Shown here piece by piece: positions 3,341 through 42,712 of a stretch of 42,712 bases of DNA (position 1 is its first letter; every line of letters begins with the position of its first letter). The notes under the pieces were generated by a model, which saw only the letters and a list, made by a program, of their open reading frames with translations, did no database searches and was not told where the DNA came from. The stretch comes from Escherichia phage LotteLoewe_Bas71, in the sequence record PQ850615.1; one strand, written 5' to 3'. The translations under genes were made by a program, and so were the position numbers.

Positions 3341-4417
3341 ATGCTATTAACTTTAGCGCCACAGGGTTTATCTATGAGCTTACTTACATCCCTAATCAGC
3401 CATCAGATATGGCTGCAACGCACCGCATCCGGTGAGGTGAAAGACCTCACGCCGTTCATTCAGGAGATAAGGGATGAAATCAAACGGCAGGTGCTGTTAT
3501 TCGGTGACGACGGTCGCAGCACTGCGCGACTGAATAAACTGTTACGCGACCTGGAAGAAGCACTAACCGGTATTACGGGTGACTGGCAAACAAAGCTAAC
3601 AGACGACCTTAAGGAACTGGCGGCGTACGAGGCTGAGTGGAACGTAAAGACACTGACCGCCAACGTAGACGCGGAATTTGTTACGCCTACCGCTGAGCAG
3701 GTATGGGCCGCTGCCGAGTTTCAACCATTATCATTGAGCGACAAGCCCGTTGATTTCACCAAGCTGATGGACGGCTGGGGTGAAACGGAAGTAGCACGTC
3801 TTGTAACTGGAGTTAAGATGGGCTTTGTGCAAGGTCAAACCACACGGCAGATTGTTAAGAATGTTGTTGGCGCTGGTGGACTAGCCGACATCTCAGAACG
3901 TAACGCGACTACGGTAATCCGCACCGCGCTGTCCCACGTATCCAACGAGGCCCGTAACGAGACGTACCGCCAGAACGACGACATCATCGAGAAGTACGAG
4001 TGGGTGTCAACGCTTGACAGCCGCACCAGTACGATTTGCAGGGTCAGAGACGGGATGACGTGGGAAATTGGTAAGGGGCCGATGCCCCCAGCCCATCCGA
4101 ACTGCCGGTCGTGCACGGCTCCGGTAATCAGTTCCGAGTTCGACTTCCTCGATAAAGGCGCAAAACGCGCGGCTAAAGGCGCGGAAGGTGGCACTCAGGT
4201 AAGCGCAGACACCACTTACTACGAGTTCCTTAAACAACAACCGGCGTGGTTTCAGGACCAGGCGCTCGGCCCGGTGCGAGGTAAGATTTTCCGTAACAGC
4301 GGTATATCGCCGGAAGAGTTTCGCGTAATATCTGTAGATGGTTTCGGGAATCCGCTCACGCTTAAGCAGATGGCGGAACTCGATAAACGTGTTGCTGATT
4401 ATCTGAAAGGGGAATAA
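3341..4417 (+). CDS. head morphogenesis / minor capsid protein (SPP1 gp7 / Mu F-like)
   Basis: 358 aa ORF following portal, the conserved position of the gp7/F-like head morphogenesis gene. Confidence 0.5.
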   Translation: MLLTLAPQGLSMSLLTSLISHQIWLQRTASGEVKDLTPFIQEIRDEIKRQVLLFGDDGRSTARLNKLLRDLEEALTGITGDWQTKLTDDLKELAAYEAEWNVKTLTANVDAEFVTPTAEQVWAAAEFQPLSLSDKPVDFTKLMDGWGETEVARLVTGVKMGFVQGQTTRQIVKNVVGAGGLADISERNATTVIRTALSHVSNEARNETYRQNDDIIEKYEWVSTLDSRTSTICRVRDGMTWEIGKGPMPPAHPNCRSCTAPVISSEFDFLDKGAKRAAKGAEGGTQVSADTTYYEFLKQQPAWFQDQALGPVRGKIFRNSGISPEEFRVISVDGFGNPLTLKQMAELDKRVADYLKGE

Positions 4418-4878
4418 TGATGGGCTTTTTCAAAGTAACTGACGTACCGTCTCGTCGCGTAGTCCAGTACGCCCGCGTGTCTGGCTCTGGCGAGAACGTG
4501 GTATTTATTGAGGACGAAAGTGTACTCGGTACACTGGTAGATGATATGCCGTTTGCAGATAAAACCGGTATTGCGTTGCCCGCCGCCGGTATGCTTTATG
4601 AAATTCCGTATCTGGCGGACGCTGGCGACGTGTATTTCTCTGCGCAACCGCAGGACGCTGAACTGGCGGGCGGCAGCGCAACCATCACTGTCGAGGTTAA
4701 GGCAGGCAAAGCGCCGTATTCTCTGACCTGGTACAAAGACGGTAAGGAAGTGGTGAATGCGCCTGAGGAGGCTCTGTCTCTGACGGTTAATGCGGTCGGC
4801 GAATACTTCGTTAAAGTTACTGATGCCGATGGAGTAGAGGCGGTAAGCAAAGCGGCGAAGGTTACTAAGCCAGAATGA
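4417..4878 (+). CDS. Ig-like domain protein (possible capsid decoration)
   Basis: C-terminal Ig-like signature (ATITVEVKAGKAPYSLTWYKDGKEV...GEYFVKVTDADG); ATGA overlap with upstream gene. Confidence 0.5.
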   Translation: MMGFFKVTDVPSRRVVQYARVSGSGENVVFIEDESVLGTLVDDMPFADKTGIALPAAGMLYEIPYLADAGDVYFSAQPQDAELAGGSATITVEVKAGKAPYSLTWYKDGKEVVNAPEEALSLTVNAVGEYFVKVTDADGVEAVSKAAKVTKPE

Positions 4879-4881
4879 TAA

Positions 4882-4909
4882 AAGGCCCCATTATGGGGCC
4901 TTAGTTTTC
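4882..4909. terminator. bidirectional intrinsic terminator
   Basis: AAGGCCCC-ATTAT-GGGGCCTT hairpin flanked by A-run upstream and T-run downstream; between convergent genes. Confidence 0.6.
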
Positions 4910-5111
4910 AACGGAATCTTGTGTTTAAATCCTGCTCATGGACAACCCTCAGAACAGTGTCATAATCCCCGTATCTTCCAGGTTCAAATATATCTAATGC
5001 CTTGTAAGCAGACATTGCGTCAGGGAAAACCTGCAGAACCTTTTTAACCCGGCACAAGTCACCGTCGAACTCTTCATCGAACTCTTGAACTACTTCGCAA
5101 ATTGCATACAT
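4908..5111 (-). CDS. hypothetical acidic 67-aa protein (opposite-strand accessory gene)
   Basis: Strong SD (AGGAGGTGA), own promoter at 5139..5167 and terminator at 4882..4909; antiparallel to flanking head genes. Confidence 0.55.
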   Translation of the reverse strand: MYAICEVVQEFDEEFDGDLCRVKKVLQVFPDAMSAYKALDIFEPGRYGDYDTVLRVVHEQDLNTRFR

Positions 5112-5138
5112 TTTTCACCTCCTGTTTAAGTTAACTGA

Positions 5139-5167
5139 ATAGTACCCTATTATATTGGGGTGTGCAA
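5139..5167 (-). promoter_or_regulatory. leftward class A promoter for accessory gene 4908..5111
   Basis: On the minus strand TTGCAC (5162..5167) - N17 - TACTAT (5139..5144); same palindromic core. Confidence 0.55.
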
Positions 5168-5208
5168 ACTATTTATTTACGTATTCCAGTTATTCCTCCG
5201 AATTGTAA

Positions 5209-5220
5209 ATGTTGGAATAA
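5209..5220 (+). promoter_or_regulatory. candidate late-promoter motif ATGTTGGAATAA (extended -10-like) upstream of spanins
   Basis: 12-mer identical to 5992..6003; contains TGgAATAA. Confidence 0.3.
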
Positions 5221-5221
5221 A

Positions 5222-5233
5222 CTATTCGAATAG
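5222..5233. repeat. perfect 12-bp palindrome CTATTCGAATAG
   Basis: Everted arrangement of the GAATAG/CTATTC half-sites found in the early promoter cores; adjacent to TTGACT (5234..5239). Confidence 0.5.
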
Positions 5234-5442
5234 TTGACTTTTCACTAAAAATATGATAAGCTCCACCTGAGCTTGTGAAGTATGAACAAGCGACCGCGGC
5301 GCGGGCAGGTAACGGAGCGGGACGTAAGTCCTGAGTGTAGTTACGCTGACGCGTTCGGAAGGGCCATACTCTATTGCTTGTGTAAAAAGTAACAGGTTTA
5401 CTGAGATTACGCCGTTTCTATGTTTAAATGATAAGGACTAGC

Positions 5443-5469
5443 GCCCTGCTTTAAGGCAGGGCTTTACTT
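5443..5469 (+). terminator. terminator/attenuator-like hairpin just upstream of the spanin RBS
   Basis: GCCCTGC-TTTAAG-GCAGGGC followed by TTTACTT; 17 nt before spanin ATG. Confidence 0.4.
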
Positions 5470-5486
5470 ATCGAGAAAGGAGAAAC

Positions 5487-5873
5487 ATGAATCTTAAAGC
5501 AACTGTCGTAGCAGGAGCATGTTTCATCATCCTGGTTTACGCACACGGCATCTACCAGTATCGCAGCGGATGGAACGAAGGCCGGGCTAATCTCGTTTCG
5601 CAGCAACAGCAGAAAGCACAGGCTGAGTTAGCGAAGAAAACACAACGGCAGCAGCAGGATGAATCGAAGGCCGCCGCCGCTGACAACGAAGGCAAGACGA
5701 AATCAGAGGTGATTACCCGTGAAGTCGTTAAGTACATTAAAACGCCTGGTCGCAGCGTGTGCACTTTTGACCCTGAGCGCGTGCAGCTCAAGTCCCGCGC
5801 CGTCGCCAACGCCAATTCCATCCCCGGATACGACGATGATGCAGCCGCCGTGCAAACTGGCGCAGCCAAGTAG
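5487..5873 (+). CDS. i-spanin (Rz-like)
   Basis: N-terminal TM helix (ATVVAGACFIILVYAHGIY), Q/A/K-rich predicted coiled coil; embeds a +1-frame lipoprotein ORF (classic Rz/Rz1 architecture). Confidence 0.65.
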   Translation: MNLKATVVAGACFIILVYAHGIYQYRSGWNEGRANLVSQQQQKAQAELAKKTQRQQQDESKAAAADNEGKTKSEVITREVVKYIKTPGRSVCTFDPERVQLKSRAVANANSIPGYDDDAAAVQTGAAK

Positions 5874-5982
5874 CGACGCTGATGAGGATTTGGCCGTCGA
5901 CGTTCAGAATGCTGAATGCGTACGGCAACTGAGGCTGAAAGTGTTTATGTTGCAGGATTACGTGAGGAATATTCTGGAATAG
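5719..5982 (+). CDS. o-spanin (Rz1-like outer-membrane lipoprotein)
   Basis: +1 frame overlapping the i-spanin; signal peptide with lipobox LTLSAC, proline-rich mature region. Confidence 0.65.
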   Translation: MKSLSTLKRLVAACALLTLSACSSSPAPSPTPIPSPDTTMMQPPCKLAQPSSDADEDLAVDVQNAECVRQLRLKVFMLQDYVRNILE

Positions 5983-5991
5983 TTGCCTTGC

Positions 5992-6003
5992 ATGTTGGAA
6001 TAA
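5992..6003 (+). promoter_or_regulatory. candidate late-promoter motif ATGTTGGAATAA upstream of scaffold/capsid genes
   Basis: Exact repeat of 5209..5220, about 60 nt upstream of scaffold ATG. Confidence 0.3.
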
Positions 6004-6064
6004 TTTATTCTTGACATGTAAATCCGGGTGGCCCGGATTCCAACGTCCAGGGGACATACTGACT

Positions 6065-6766
6065 ATGAATCGTTTTTTACGTTATCCGTTCCAGGAAGAA
6101 GCTGGAGCAGAAGATAAAGCTGGTGGCGGTGACGCTCCTAAAATGTTCACCGCTGAAGAAGTTCAGGCGCTGATTGAGAAAGAAGTTGCCGGGCTTAAGG
6201 CTAATCAGGAAGCATTGTTGGCGGAGAAGAAAGAAGCCGCTCGCAAAGCAAAAGAGGCCGAAGAAGAACGGCAGCGCGCGCACCAGGAGGCGTTAAAAGC
6301 CGCTGGTAAGATGGATGAGTTCGAAAAGACGATTCGTAGCCAGTACGACCCTGTGTTAGCCGAGAAAGACGGTCGCATCTCCAGAATGGCAGAGCGTATC
6401 CTCGGCAGCGAACGTAAAGCGGTGCTAGGCTCTTTCGCGGGTGACTTTATTACCCCAGAAGCAGTGGACATTCTTGCGCCGTTCGTTAAGACTGAGTTCG
6501 AAGGCGATGATGTGGTTACTAAGTTTGTTGGTGCAGACGGTAACGTAATCACGACTGACCCGGAACAGTTCCGCAAATACCTGCGCGAACACAAGGCGTT
6601 TTCGCATTTGATCAAAGCAAATGCAGCTTCCGGCGGCGGGGCTTCCGGTAGCAAAGGCGGCGGGGCCGCACCAGCGTTTAAAGACATGAGTGAAGCAGAG
6701 CGTTTAGCCCTGTATAAATCGAACCCTGCCGAATTTGAACGGCAACTTAAAGCCCTGAGGAAATAA
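6065..6766 (+). CDS. capsid scaffolding protein
   Basis: E/K/A-rich predicted coiled-coil protein immediately upstream of the major capsid gene; start refined to internal ATG 6065 with AGGGGA SD. Confidence 0.55.
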   Translation: MNRFLRYPFQEEAGAEDKAGGGDAPKMFTAEEVQALIEKEVAGLKANQEALLAEKKEAARKAKEAEEERQRAHQEALKAAGKMDEFEKTIRSQYDPVLAEKDGRISRMAERILGSERKAVLGSFAGDFITPEAVDILAPFVKTEFEGDDVVTKFVGADGNVITTDPEQFRKYLREHKAFSHLIKANAASGGGASGSKGGGAAPAFKDMSEAERLALYKSNPAEFERQLKALRK

Positions 6767-8093: not shown

Positions 8094-8273
8094 ATGGCAG
8101 ATAATTACGTAATCCGCGAAAAGTATACCCACGTTGATATCGTTGACGGACAGGTGATGCCTGTTCGCGGTGTGGTAGAAGCGGATGAACTGGTTGCAAC
8201 CCAACCAGACAATGAAGAAGCGCACAACAACGGCGGTGGTACTAAGCGTCGTCGCCGTAAGTCAGAGGAATAA
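8094..8273 (+). CDS. hypothetical 59-aa protein
   Basis: ATG with AAGGAAAGG SD; basic C-terminus (KRRRRK); below the ORF-track length cutoff. Confidence 0.35.
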   Translation: MADNYVIREKYTHVDIVDGQVMPVRGVVEADELVATQPDNEEAHNNGGGTKRRRRKSEE

Positions 8274-8276
8274 TTT

Positions 8277-8789
8277 ATGCCGCTAATCGTGGAAACTGGG
8301 GTGATCGTCCCAAATGCCGACAGTTACATTAGTCTGGCTGACGCCCGCGCGTTAGCGGCTAATTATGGCCTTGAGCTGCCGGAAGACGATACCGCAGCAG
8401 AGGTGGCCTTACGCAACGGTGCTACTTATGTAGGGCTTGCAGAACCGCAGATGTGCGGTCGTCGAGTATCCGCCGAACAGTCTCTTGCATACCCCCGCAC
8501 CGGCGTTACGTTAAACGGGTTCCCGGTGGTCAACAACGCCATTCCGAAACAGGTGATTCTTGCGCAGGTAATCGCTGCCGCTACATATGGCGAGGGCACC
8601 GAAGTCCGGGCTAACTCAGACGGTCGCGCCGTGCAGACTGAGCGTGTCGAGGGTGCAGTAACAGTGACCTACTTCAACAATGGCAACAGTGGCGCTACGA
8701 CCGCGATTACCGCTGCTGACGACGCTTTACGCCCGTTATTGTGTGGCGGTCTTAACAATGGTTTCTCGTTTAATGTGTACCGGGGTTAA
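8277..8789 (+). CDS. head-tail connector / adaptor protein (gp6-like)
   Basis: N-terminal motif (ADSYISLADARALAA) typical of head-tail connector proteins; position after capsid genes. Confidence 0.5.
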   Translation: MPLIVETGVIVPNADSYISLADARALAANYGLELPEDDTAAEVALRNGATYVGLAEPQMCGRRVSAEQSLAYPRTGVTLNGFPVVNNAIPKQVILAQVIAAATYGEGTEVRANSDGRAVQTERVEGAVTVTYFNNGNSGATTAITAADDALRPLLCGGLNNGFSFNVYRG

Positions 8790-39646: not shown

Positions 39647-39955
39647 TTGGATAAATTTACTGAAACAGTGACAGGCTGGCTTCTCGCTGCCGCACTAGCC
39701 GGAGGGGTAATCGGACTAAGGCAACATAAGTCCGCTATTTCCGGCCCTATCGACGGCTTCTGCTTTATTGCAACTGGCTTCACTTGCGCCGTATTTGGCG
39801 CACCTCTCGCAGCTCAATGGTTTGGAATCACGGGCGACCGTGAAATCGCAGGCCTGGGCTTCATTATCGCTATTCTCTGGATGCCTATCTATTCCCGTCT
39901 GTCCGGTATCGTCGCCGGAGAATACATCGCACGTCGAGGAGGCCCGGATGAATGA
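39647..39955 (+). CDS. holin
   Basis: 102 aa with predicted TM helices and charged C-terminus; TTG start with GGAGGA SD; adjacent to the endolysin. Confidence 0.55.
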   Translation: MDKFTETVTGWLLAAALAGGVIGLRQHKSAISGPIDGFCFIATGFTCAVFGAPLAAQWFGITGDREIAGLGFIIAILWMPIYSRLSGIVAGEYIARRGGPDE

Positions 39956-40214
39956 GTTATTCTGGTTCTGCGGTATGCTGGCAATCGGAGGCACATCGCT
40001 GTTTAATGTGTATCATCCCAGCGTTGACGACGGGCTATTTGGCCGGGTGCTCTATATCCTGACTGCTATTGTCTGCGCCGCAGGATGTATCCACCTGTTA
40101 CAGGGCAGCATGTCTCCGACGCTGCCTGAGACATTAATCACATTAGTTGCGCTGCGCCAGATTCGTCAGGCGTGGCTGTCATACGGAGGACATAAGCGTG
40201 TCTCGAAACATTAG
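39948..40214 (+). CDS. second small membrane protein of lysis cassette (holin/antiholin candidate)
   Basis: 88 aa with two hydrophobic segments; ATG 39948 with GAGGAGG SD; overlaps holin and endolysin. Confidence 0.45.
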   Translation: MNELFWFCGMLAIGGTSLFNVYHPSVDDGLFGRVLYILTAIVCAAGCIHLLQGSMSPTLPETLITLVALRQIRQAWLSYGGHKRVSKH

Positions 40215-40686
40215 CAACAATGGCATCAAATTCACCGCCGCGTTCGAGGGATTCCGCGGAACTGCGTATCGTGCTACGCCAAATGAGAAGTACCTGACTA
40301 TTGGGTACGGTCATTATGGGCCAGACGTAACGCCAGGCAAGACCATCACCCCGGGACAAGGCCTCCTGTTACTGAATCGTGATATGGCTAAGGCCGTAGC
40401 TGCGGTTGACGCAGCAGCACACCATTCATTGACACAGGCACAGTTCGATGCAGTGTGCGACCTGGTATACAACGCAGGTGCTGGTGTGATTGCAGCTACT
40501 ACCGGCACGGGTAAGGCACTGCGTTCTGGTGATATTGCAACGCTGCGGGCTAAGCTGGCGCTGTTCATCAACCAGAACGGCAAACCGATACTTGGACTGC
40601 GTCGTCGTACCGCCGGACGTCTGGCACTGTTCGACGGTAAACCGTGGCAAGAGGCAGAGGCTATTGGGCGCGCGGTGAAAGGTTGA
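40198..40686 (+). CDS. endolysin, phage lysozyme (GH24-like)
   Basis: Lysozyme-like region (IKFTAAFEGFRGTAYRATPNEKYLTIGYGH); GTG start with GGAGGA SD; followed by a terminator. Confidence 0.7.
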   Translation: MSRNISNNGIKFTAAFEGFRGTAYRATPNEKYLTIGYGHYGPDVTPGKTITPGQGLLLLNRDMAKAVAAVDAAAHHSLTQAQFDAVCDLVYNAGAGVIAATTGTGKALRSGDIATLRAKLALFINQNGKPILGLRRRTAGRLALFDGKPWQEAEAIGRAVKG

Positions 40687-42532: not shown

Positions 42533-42634
42533 GACTACTAGTCTTTCCGAATTCCTGGGCTATCGCCGTAGCTAACGACCATTACGGCGGCGACGGTAAA
42601 CGAGCGCCACGCCACGGCCTATATAACTGATACA

Positions 42635-42658
42635 AGCCCTCTACGGAGGGCTTTTCTG
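42635..42658 (+). terminator. intrinsic terminator-like hairpin near window end
   Basis: AGCCCTC-TACG-GAGGGCT followed by TTTCTG. Confidence 0.45.
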
Positions 42659-42712
42659 TACATCCCGCCCAATCCCCTTATATAATCCCTTTAGACGCGT
42701 AGGGCGCGTCTG

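Follow-up and report, generated by a model that had tools for sequence, protein, structure and literature searches.

A probable two-component spanin of the Jersey family, encoded by overlapping genes in the head-gene cluster of a Kagunavirus coliphage

In phage lambda, the Rz1 gene lies wholly within Rz, and both come immediately after S and R as part of a single lysis cassette. Spanins of T4 have a separated architecture and are found among early or middle genes, not inside the head-gene cluster. Lysis genes of T4-like genomes are not clustered (PMC6139136). The closest described relatives of the locus presented here constitute the "Jersey" family of Kongari et al. 2018, a group of 27 phages with overlapped spanin genes which includes K1G, K1H and K1ind1-3 as well as Jersey, SETP3 and HK578 (PMC6139136). 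The overlap in this family amounts to 155 bp, and cysteines 45 and 67 of the o-spanin are constant (PMC6139136). Location of the spanins apart from other lysis genes has been reported repeatedly. In Golestan, spanins are encoded by ORF7/8 and holins with endolysin by ORF66-68 (PMC7203180); in the Jerseyvirus SeF1, the corresponding products are Gp_009/010 and Gp_063-065 (PMC9409062); the 2019 announcement of Schulenberg (MK931438) explicitly describes holin/antiholin and endolysin as genetically separate from the overlapping spanins (PMC6763661). Because these papers describe the split arrangement, the spanin pair, its overlapped layout and its separation from the holin-endolysin genes are already known, that is annotated and published, for Guernseyvirinae.

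The DNA analysed here, called the window below, is the whole 42,712-nucleotide record PQ850615.1 of Escherichia phage LotteLoewe_Bas71. It is a complete genome of the genus Kagunavirus (Guernseyvirinae) with a circular map. This assignment is based on three observations. Gene order of the whole window is that of SonjaBuckley_Bas74, which was deposited as circular and begins with the small terminase gene; a join of the window's last 400 bases to its first 400 corresponds to a single contiguous piece of coliphage KMB35 (98.1% identity); and headful packaging is predicted for Shashou, the close relatives in general being either circular deposits or predicted headful packagers. Between positions 5300 and 6100 the window is 99% identical to KMB35 and Bas74 and 96-98% identical to many other Kagunavirus genomes. 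The genes considered for lysis, together with their neighbours, are as follows.

4417..4878: Hoc-like decoration gene (phrog_3945, E 7e-85), upstream of the spanins
4908..5111, minus strand: small gene (ORF) between the decoration gene and the spanins
5487..5873, plus strand: i-spanin gene, an ORF with ATG start coding for 128 aa, with phrog_2536 match and membrane helix
5706..5709, plus strand: Shine-Dalgarno sequence GAGG of the o-spanin, read from the sequence, inside the i-spanin gene and 9 nt before GTG 5719
5719..5982, plus strand: o-spanin gene in the +1 frame, GTG start, 87-aa precursor with lipobox LSAC and Cys22
6065..6766: scaffold gene (phrog_206, E 3e-55; ATG 6065), downstream of the spanins
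39647..39955, plus strand: holin of 102 aa, TTG start (phrog_2359, E 1e-29), with hydrophobic segments
39948..40214, plus strand: second holin-like protein of 88 aa (phrog_2508, E 1.4e-32)
40198..40686, plus strand: endolysin of 162 aa, GTG start (Pfam Phage_lysozyme, E 1.1e-26; phrog_33703 and phrog_7)

With a probability of about 0.9, the pair at 5487..5982 is the two-component spanin of a Kagunavirus coliphage, a member of the Jersey family with overlapped architecture, which would act by a lambda-like mechanism. Spanin function is here, as we see it, assigned through architecture and analogy. All three hallmarks of the Jersey family, namely the overlapped class, the 155-bp overlap and the Cys45/Cys67 pair, are reproduced in the window. 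The RefSeq record of Jersey itself contains spanin genes of 387 and 264 nt between Hoc-like decoration and scaffold genes, the same as in the window, with the holin-holin-endolysin genes close to the opposite end of this linear record. The Jersey o-spanin has an ATG start and lipobox LNGC, compared with GTG and LSAC here; nothing else of substance differs. Shashou (MK931440) likewise has, at homologous coordinates, an i-spanin gene of 387 nt and an o-spanin gene of 264 nt annotated "with N-terminal lipobox". When phage records were searched with the i-spanin by tblastn, identities were 63-68% to Jerseyvirus members (SETP3, 63.4%) and 97% to K1ind2. A homologous pair is present also in Dhillonvirus JLBYU60 (o-spanin 43% identical, E 3e-20), placed between the head-morphogenesis gene, which it directly follows, and the scaffold gene. 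The spanin slot in the head cluster is ancestral to Guernseyvirinae and common to Dhillonvirus.

The i-spanin matches phrog_2536, "Rz-like spanin", over its full length (E 4.8e-57), and both its length and its position equal those of curated i-spanins of Jersey and Shashou. Its sole hydrophobic stretch comprises residues 1-25 (Kyte-Doolittle, 19-residue window, 1.85). The membrane helix, placed heuristically, spans approximately residues 3-25, its core VVAGACFIILV reaching 3.08 and being preceded by Lys4. By this heuristic, the i-spanin qualifies as a small inner-membrane protein of type II, its one transmembrane domain being N-terminal. An AF2 model built from the single sequence, which is confident for residues 1-63 only, contains a helix at residues 3-63 (pLDDT 75-92) and a further one at 69-79, residues 68-128 mostly having pLDDT <50; for the Jersey family i-spanin, Kongari 2018 predicts two helices and a beta-containing linker (PMC6139136). 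Cys92 is the predicted periplasmic cysteine of the protein.

The o-spanin starts with MKSLSTLKRLVAACALLTLSAC, composed of a basic n-region, a hydrophobic core and the lipobox LSAC with Cys22, followed by Ser at the +2 position. The claimed lipoprotein signal held up on closer analysis, as the segment AACALLTLSAC conforms to a PS51257-like lipoprotein pattern and the signal is kept in 13 relatives out of 13. The mature protein has 66 aa, nine of them prolines, and contains Cys45 and Cys67. Profile matches cover residues 9-86 (phrog_1267, E 3.1e-21) and 41-87 (phrog_5672, E 2.4e-30). A six-frame scan of all 42.7 kb for lipoprotein signals returned the o-spanin as the one credible ORF. Unimolecular spanin of the T1 gp11 type was also considered and rejected, given that the o-spanin has no C-terminal hydrophobic segment and that no other credible lipobox ORF was found.

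Both ORFs proposed by the initial annotation, at 5487..5873 for the i-spanin and 5719..5982 for the o-spanin, are present, and its description of the latter as a +1-frame lipoprotein gene extending past the former is correct as well: the o-spanin starts 232 nt into the i-spanin gene, overlaps it by 155 nt, and has its stop (5982) 109 nt beyond that of the i-spanin (5873). The same extension overturns the accompanying label "embedded". This lambda-type class requires an o-spanin wholly inside the i-spanin gene (PMC6139136); since the o-spanin frame is not wholly contained in the i-spanin frame, the label is rejected and the pair belongs to the "overlapped" class by the definitions given in the same study.

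Coding potential of the second frame was assessed by codon-position comparison of seven phages with the same architecture. In the segment occupied by the o-spanin only, pairwise difference is 0.297 at o-frame codon position 3 versus 0.111 and 0.048 at positions 1 and 2. Such a protein-coding signature indicates purifying selection on the o-frame past the i-spanin stop. Within the overlap, substitutions follow the i-spanin frame and o-frame position 2 is the most variable, which fits an o-spanin whose signal peptide and proline-rich linker tolerate substitutions.

As substitutions in the overlap follow the i-frame, the overlap alone is no proof of o-frame coding, and it would agree with another interpretation, according to which only a 47-aa C-terminal ORF (5839..5982, ATG start) is real and the upstream lipoprotein signal is a chance reading of the i-spanin gene. 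The short ORF is annotated as such in Bas74, RefSeq Golestan and many others, and such calls underlie PHROG 5672, a profile of 47 positions. Its product, however, would carry no export signal, and ATG 5839 is not accompanied by a recognisable ribosome-binding site. The o-spanin frame opens at 5713, and GTG 5719, equipped with the GAGG listed above, is the sole in-frame start which gives a lipoprotein signal; Shashou carries an annotated ribosome-binding site at the corresponding place, where Jersey and SETP3 show GGAGG plus ATG. Signal peptide and lipobox cysteine persist in each of the 13 relatives analysed for the o-spanin frame, with Asp never found at +2, despite divergence of the sequences, in which the lipobox reads LSAC, LASC, LNGC, LTGC, VTGC, ITGC or LFGC. 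In the relatives SenTO17 and VIPECOMC04, where the two genes have lost any appreciable overlap (in VIPECOMC04 an HNH endonuclease is inserted between them), the o-spanin has its own signal and lipobox. Expert curation, by the Center for Phage Technology for Shashou and in the Jersey record, also gives the long form. We consider the short form hardly credible; the o-spanin start at 5719 is the correct one. Although ordinary as a discovery, the spanin pair has practical value for annotation, as many public records and PHROG 5672 carry the truncated 47-aa o-spanin without lipoprotein signal.

The pair shares its functional design with lambda Rz/Rz1: a protein of type II topology in the inner membrane, a lipoprotein of the outer membrane which the same DNA encodes in the +1 frame and whose mature part is proline-rich, and periplasmic cysteines. 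It differs in the extension of the o-spanin beyond the i-spanin gene and in the distance of 7.5 kb from holin and endolysin. The sequence families of lambda Rz and Rz1 are presumably Pfam Phage_lysis and Rz1. The Pfam search gave no match to Rz or Rz1 models at E <= 0.1, its sole match being DUF2514 with 16.8 bits against a cutoff of 26, and the NCBIfam model P2_Rz1 (LysC) scored 17.3 bits, below its cutoff of 27. The name Rz/Rz1, under which the pair was first noticed, is therefore justified as a functional label, by PHROG spanin matches, helix and lipobox, and not as a statement of homology. As judged by these profiles, the two proteins correspond to lambda Rz/Rz1 in function and show no detectable homology to them in sequence.

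Absence of a significant match to curated Rz or Rz1 models would also be expected if the genes formed a module of membrane protein and lipoprotein, linked to the head cluster, with a role other than lysis, such as superinfection exclusion of the kind exerted by lipoproteins like T5 Llp or Cor. The location is unusual for lysis genes, and function in the whole Jersey family has been assigned via architecture and analogy. Against such a role, the pair displays the full feature set of a two-component spanin (type II protein, overlapping gene for a proline-rich lipoprotein, periplasmic cysteines) and represents the only identifiable outer-membrane disruption function of the genome. In relatives, moreover, a separate Imm-like superinfection immunity gene is annotated elsewhere. 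The non-lysis module is very improbable, and the spanin reading is preferred.

As spanins, the proteins would follow the lambda paradigm. The i-spanin would be anchored in the inner membrane via its N-terminal helix, and the o-spanin precursor would be lipidated at Cys22 and then sorted to the outer membrane, because its +2 residue is Ser and not Asp. The C-terminal periplasmic parts of both proteins would bind each other across the periplasm, through the mesh of the cell wall, in a complex probably stabilised by disulfides of Cys92 of the i-spanin and Cys45 and Cys67 of the o-spanin. Release of the endolysin (40198..40686) by the holins (39647..40214) would lead to degradation of the cell wall and thereby free the spanin complexes, which would disrupt or fuse the outer membrane and complete lysis.

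Matches to PHROG and Pfam profiles confirm the holin and endolysin genes previously placed at 39647..40686. The homologous holin pair is named holin/antiholin in the Schulenberg announcement (PMC6763661). The endolysin has no N-terminal hydrophobic segment (no hydrophobic window was found). No second spanin adjoins the endolysin: hydrophobic segments are absent from the ORFs which follow it, and their only match is to a family of unknown function. Nor did the six-frame lipoprotein scan give any other spanin candidate in the genome. One alternative-frame extension before the second holin (GTG 39840, ...LFSGC) was rejected, having no ribosome-binding site and a non-canonical residue at -3; it is also not conserved, since in Jersey there is no overlap between the two holin genes.

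The pair was said to lie between the decoration and scaffold genes, some 7.5 kb from holin and endolysin. Flanking matches to phrog_3945 and phrog_206 bear out the first statement. The second applies to the route across the window ends, where 7,512 nt separate the endolysin stop from the i-spanin start, and not to the opposite way round, which measures 33,664 nt. Contiguity of the end-to-start junction in KMB35 justifies the shorter route. Intervening genes between the lysis cassette and the spanins share one strand, with the exception of one small gene. Spanins unlinked from holin and endolysin bring the window close to the dispersed lysis genes of T4-like phages.

About 370 nt of non-coding DNA precede the spanins past the small minus-strand gene. 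This stretch and other intergenic parts of the neighbourhood, along with one site near the window end, contain the following elements.

4882..4902, both strands: GC-rich hairpin, terminator-like in both directions, directly 3' of the decoration gene; the terminator scan lists the minus strand
5182..5262, plus strand: putative promoter region with TTGACT (5234-5239), a 17-nt spacer ending in TGa, and TAAGCT (5257-5262)
5294..5358, plus strand: three-tier GC-rich stem-loop, part of the 5' leader predicted for the spanin transcript
5443..5462, plus strand: hairpin GCCCTGC/GCAGGGC, 24 nt before the i-spanin ATG, terminator-like in the scan
5997..6038, plus strand: palindrome GGAATAATTTATTC (5997-6010), TTGACA (6011-6016) and hairpin ATCCGGGTGGCCCGGAT (6022-6038)
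42634-42653: terminator-like hairpin, then TGTACA-N18-TATAAT, just before the small terminase gene

On the plus strand, the hairpin at 4882..4902 is followed by the tail AGTTTTC, one T below the scan rule. The homologous hairpin is annotated as plus-strand terminator in Shashou, where it follows an Ig-like decoration gene, and is present in the Jersey group (Jerseyvirus). The block 5182..5262, which holds also the inverted repeats TATTCC-AG-TTATTCC and GGAATAAACTATTC before TTGACT, is conserved in 12 of the 13 Guernseyvirinae loci, with TG almost invariant. Its candidate hexamers (5234-5262) agree with the consensus at 8 positions out of 12 and are hence not called by the scan, whose rule is 9/12; on the basis of conservation, they are interpreted as a putative extended -10, sigma-70-like promoter. 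The leader at 5269-5489 folds with z = -4.1. The Jersey leader has the same architecture (z = -2.9), and inner and middle stems of the leader vary in sequence and stay paired in five sequence types. MAFFT misaligns the divergent groups, and a consensus fold of the whole-leader alignment across genera consequently yielded no more than the hairpin and a weak outer stem; the architecture was therefore taken from folds of individual sequences. In the hairpin at 5443..5462, the central pair is T:A, C:G, A:T or G:C in different phages and compensatory changes occur at four pairs. Possible roles of this hairpin are leaky termination, attenuation and stabilisation of the RNA. The Rfam scan of positions 4800-6200 (E <= 1) assigned no family to the leader or the hairpins. 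Matches of the conserved 15-mer TATTCCARTTATTCC in IMG/VR were mostly unrelated AT-rich chance matches; spanins were encoded by 5 of 120 loci, none of which added diversity, and the covariation sample was therefore not enlarged from this source.

The initial annotation further deduced that lysis genes are split between two transcription units and that the spanins are consequently under late-promoter control. A separate unit with its start upstream of the spanins and the same orientation as the head genes is plausible, because predicted terminators and a conserved promoter-like site are located upstream of the spanins. Late control may reasonably be supposed from two such units, without being their consequence. 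Spanins are normally under late control, lambda being an example, and in this respect the supposition is unremarkable. The spanins, whose fixed slot follows head-morphogenesis and decoration genes and precedes scaffold and major capsid genes, would probably be read from their own conserved extended -10 promoter (5234-5262), with a structured leader of about 220 nt in between. The transcript could possibly run on into scaffold and capsid genes, so that spanins would be co-expressed with head genes.

A single long rightward late transcript, covering holins, endolysin, packaging genes, spanins and head genes and reading past the predicted terminators, would make such a unit unnecessary. The late transcript of lambda passes terminators in this way under Q antitermination. 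Nearly all genes from approximately 37.5 kb, across the window ends, up to 23.8 kb lie on the plus strand, and T tracts of the hairpins are weak. In the one RNA-seq study of a Kagunavirus, phage K1B4, lysozyme, head-morphogenesis and capsid genes share one temporal class, in agreement with one transcript; the paper names neither spanins nor holins, and its supplements are without per-gene time classes. Several features of the window speak against one transcript: the conserved hairpin after the decoration gene, which is a terminator in the Shashou annotation, the intervening minus-strand gene, the promoter-like element kept upstream of the spanins across genera, and the terminator-like hairpin with TGTACA-N18-TATAAT before the small terminase gene. 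No antiterminator was identified. We regard the single transcript as rather unlikely.

The layout of putative promoter, leader and hairpin before the spanins recalls pR'-6S-tR' before the lysis genes of lambda. It is a possibility, one we put forward tentatively and with more doubt than conviction, that the spanin pair is the first cistron of a dedicated regulated unit found throughout the subfamily, defined by an extended -10 promoter bordered by GGAATAA/TTATTCC inverted repeats, a leader of about 220 nt and a covarying hairpin. If this were true, an undescribed attenuation/antitermination switch or small RNA could set dose and timing of the spanins, and these, perhaps with scaffold and capsid, would be controlled independently of holin and endolysin. 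The conserved stretch before the spanin genes, with its putative promoter, leader and hairpin, bears modestly on late-gene control in this phage group, which now serves as a model (the BASEL collection).

The element at 5997..6038, situated between the o-spanin stop and the scaffold ATG, is nearly invariant in six phages of two genera. Its TTGACA (6011) was considered as part of a sigma-70 promoter ahead of the scaffold gene, a reading rejected because an acceptable -10 hexamer is missing and Jerseyvirus does not conserve the -35. The motif GGAATAANNTATTC, with at most one mismatch, occurs at three sites of the genome, 5214, 5997 and 8267, compared with a chance expectation of 0.13. Recurrence of the palindrome before the scaffold gene would, under the tentative reading of a dedicated regulated unit, point to a putative phage-encoded regulator.

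In many public records, including those of the close coliphage relative Bas74 and RefSeq Golestan, the o-spanin is represented by a 47-aa CDS that begins at an internal ATG and therefore lacks the signal peptide and the lipobox. This short call corresponds to 5839..5982 in the window and to 3540..3683 and 3541..3684 in two loci of related phages (L001 and L002, respectively). The correct o-spanin start is the GTG at 5719, giving the long form that is found in the curated records of Shashou and Jersey. The truncated calls have also entered profile databases: PHROG 5672, a profile of 47 positions, was made from them.

A homologous overlapped spanin pair is present in Dhillonvirus JLBYU60 (locus L010, 2812..3253), where it occupies the same slot of the head module, preceded by a head-morphogenesis gene and followed by the scaffold gene. 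The placement of spanins is therefore either older than the split between Guernseyvirinae and Dhillonvirus, or it was exchanged along with the head module.

In phage vB_VIPECOMC04 (PQ423993, locus L005, 2501..3565) the overlapped pair has become separated by insertion of an HNH endonuclease gene between the i- and o-spanin genes. The i-spanin carries divergent sequence in place of its C-terminus, and the signal peptide of the o-spanin is a new one, MRLPILLLVIGCYGC... This arrangement resembles that described for a T5 relative, in which a similar gap separating the spanin genes contains an endonuclease (Kongari 2018, PMC6139136).

The noncoding and variable features surrounding the spanin genes, together with two more distant sites, are as follows.

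4908..5111, minus strand: 67-aa protein of unknown function
5182..5262: inverted repeats TATTCC-AG-TTATTCC and GGAATAAACTATTC, then TTGACT-N17(TGn)-TAAGCT
5294..5358: GC-rich three-tier stem-loop in the spanin leader, inside an annotated 36-aa ORF (5282..5392)
5443..5462: hairpin, separated from the i-spanin ATG by 24 nt
5997..6038: palindrome GGAATAATTTATTC and hairpin ATCCGGGTGGCCCGGAT, between the o-spanin and scaffold genes
8267..8280: third near-copy of the palindrome, overlapping the start (8277) of the head-tail adaptor gene
42634..42686: terminator-like hairpin AAGCCCTCtacgGAGGGCTT shortly before the small terminase gene, with TGTACA-N18-TATAAT immediately after the hairpin

The block 5182..5262, upstream of the spanins, is kept across genera and is likely a regulated extended -10 promoter; it carries no annotation in the database records compared. 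Between the decoration gene and this likely promoter lies a variable cargo slot read on the opposite strand, in the window and at the homologous positions of L004, L005, L006, L013 and L016. In VIPECOMC04 the slot contains a RusA-like resolvase and in S100 an adenine methyltransferase, and VSt10, pink and SenTO17 have other hypothetical proteins in it; the Jersey and Shashou records have no minus-strand gene annotated there.

Structure, not sequence, of the leader stem-loop is kept across Kagunavirus, Jerseyvirus and the pink-, SenTO17- and TS33-type phages, and the element has no match in Rfam. The 36-aa "hypothetical protein" covering it is annotated in Bas74 and Shashou; it is probably not a gene, because an 11-nt gap removes its start in Jerseyvirus. 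In the hairpin preceding the i-spanin gene, all four Watson-Crick combinations of the central pair occur in related phages. Given its weak T tract, this hairpin could act as a leaky terminator or as an attenuator, or it could stabilise the RNA.

Downstream of the pair, the palindrome and hairpin at 5997..6038 are almost invariant between the two genera compared. Three sites of the palindrome motif were observed, against 0.13 expected by chance. The element at 42634..42686 likely marks the boundary between the lysis-cassette block and the packaging and head genes.
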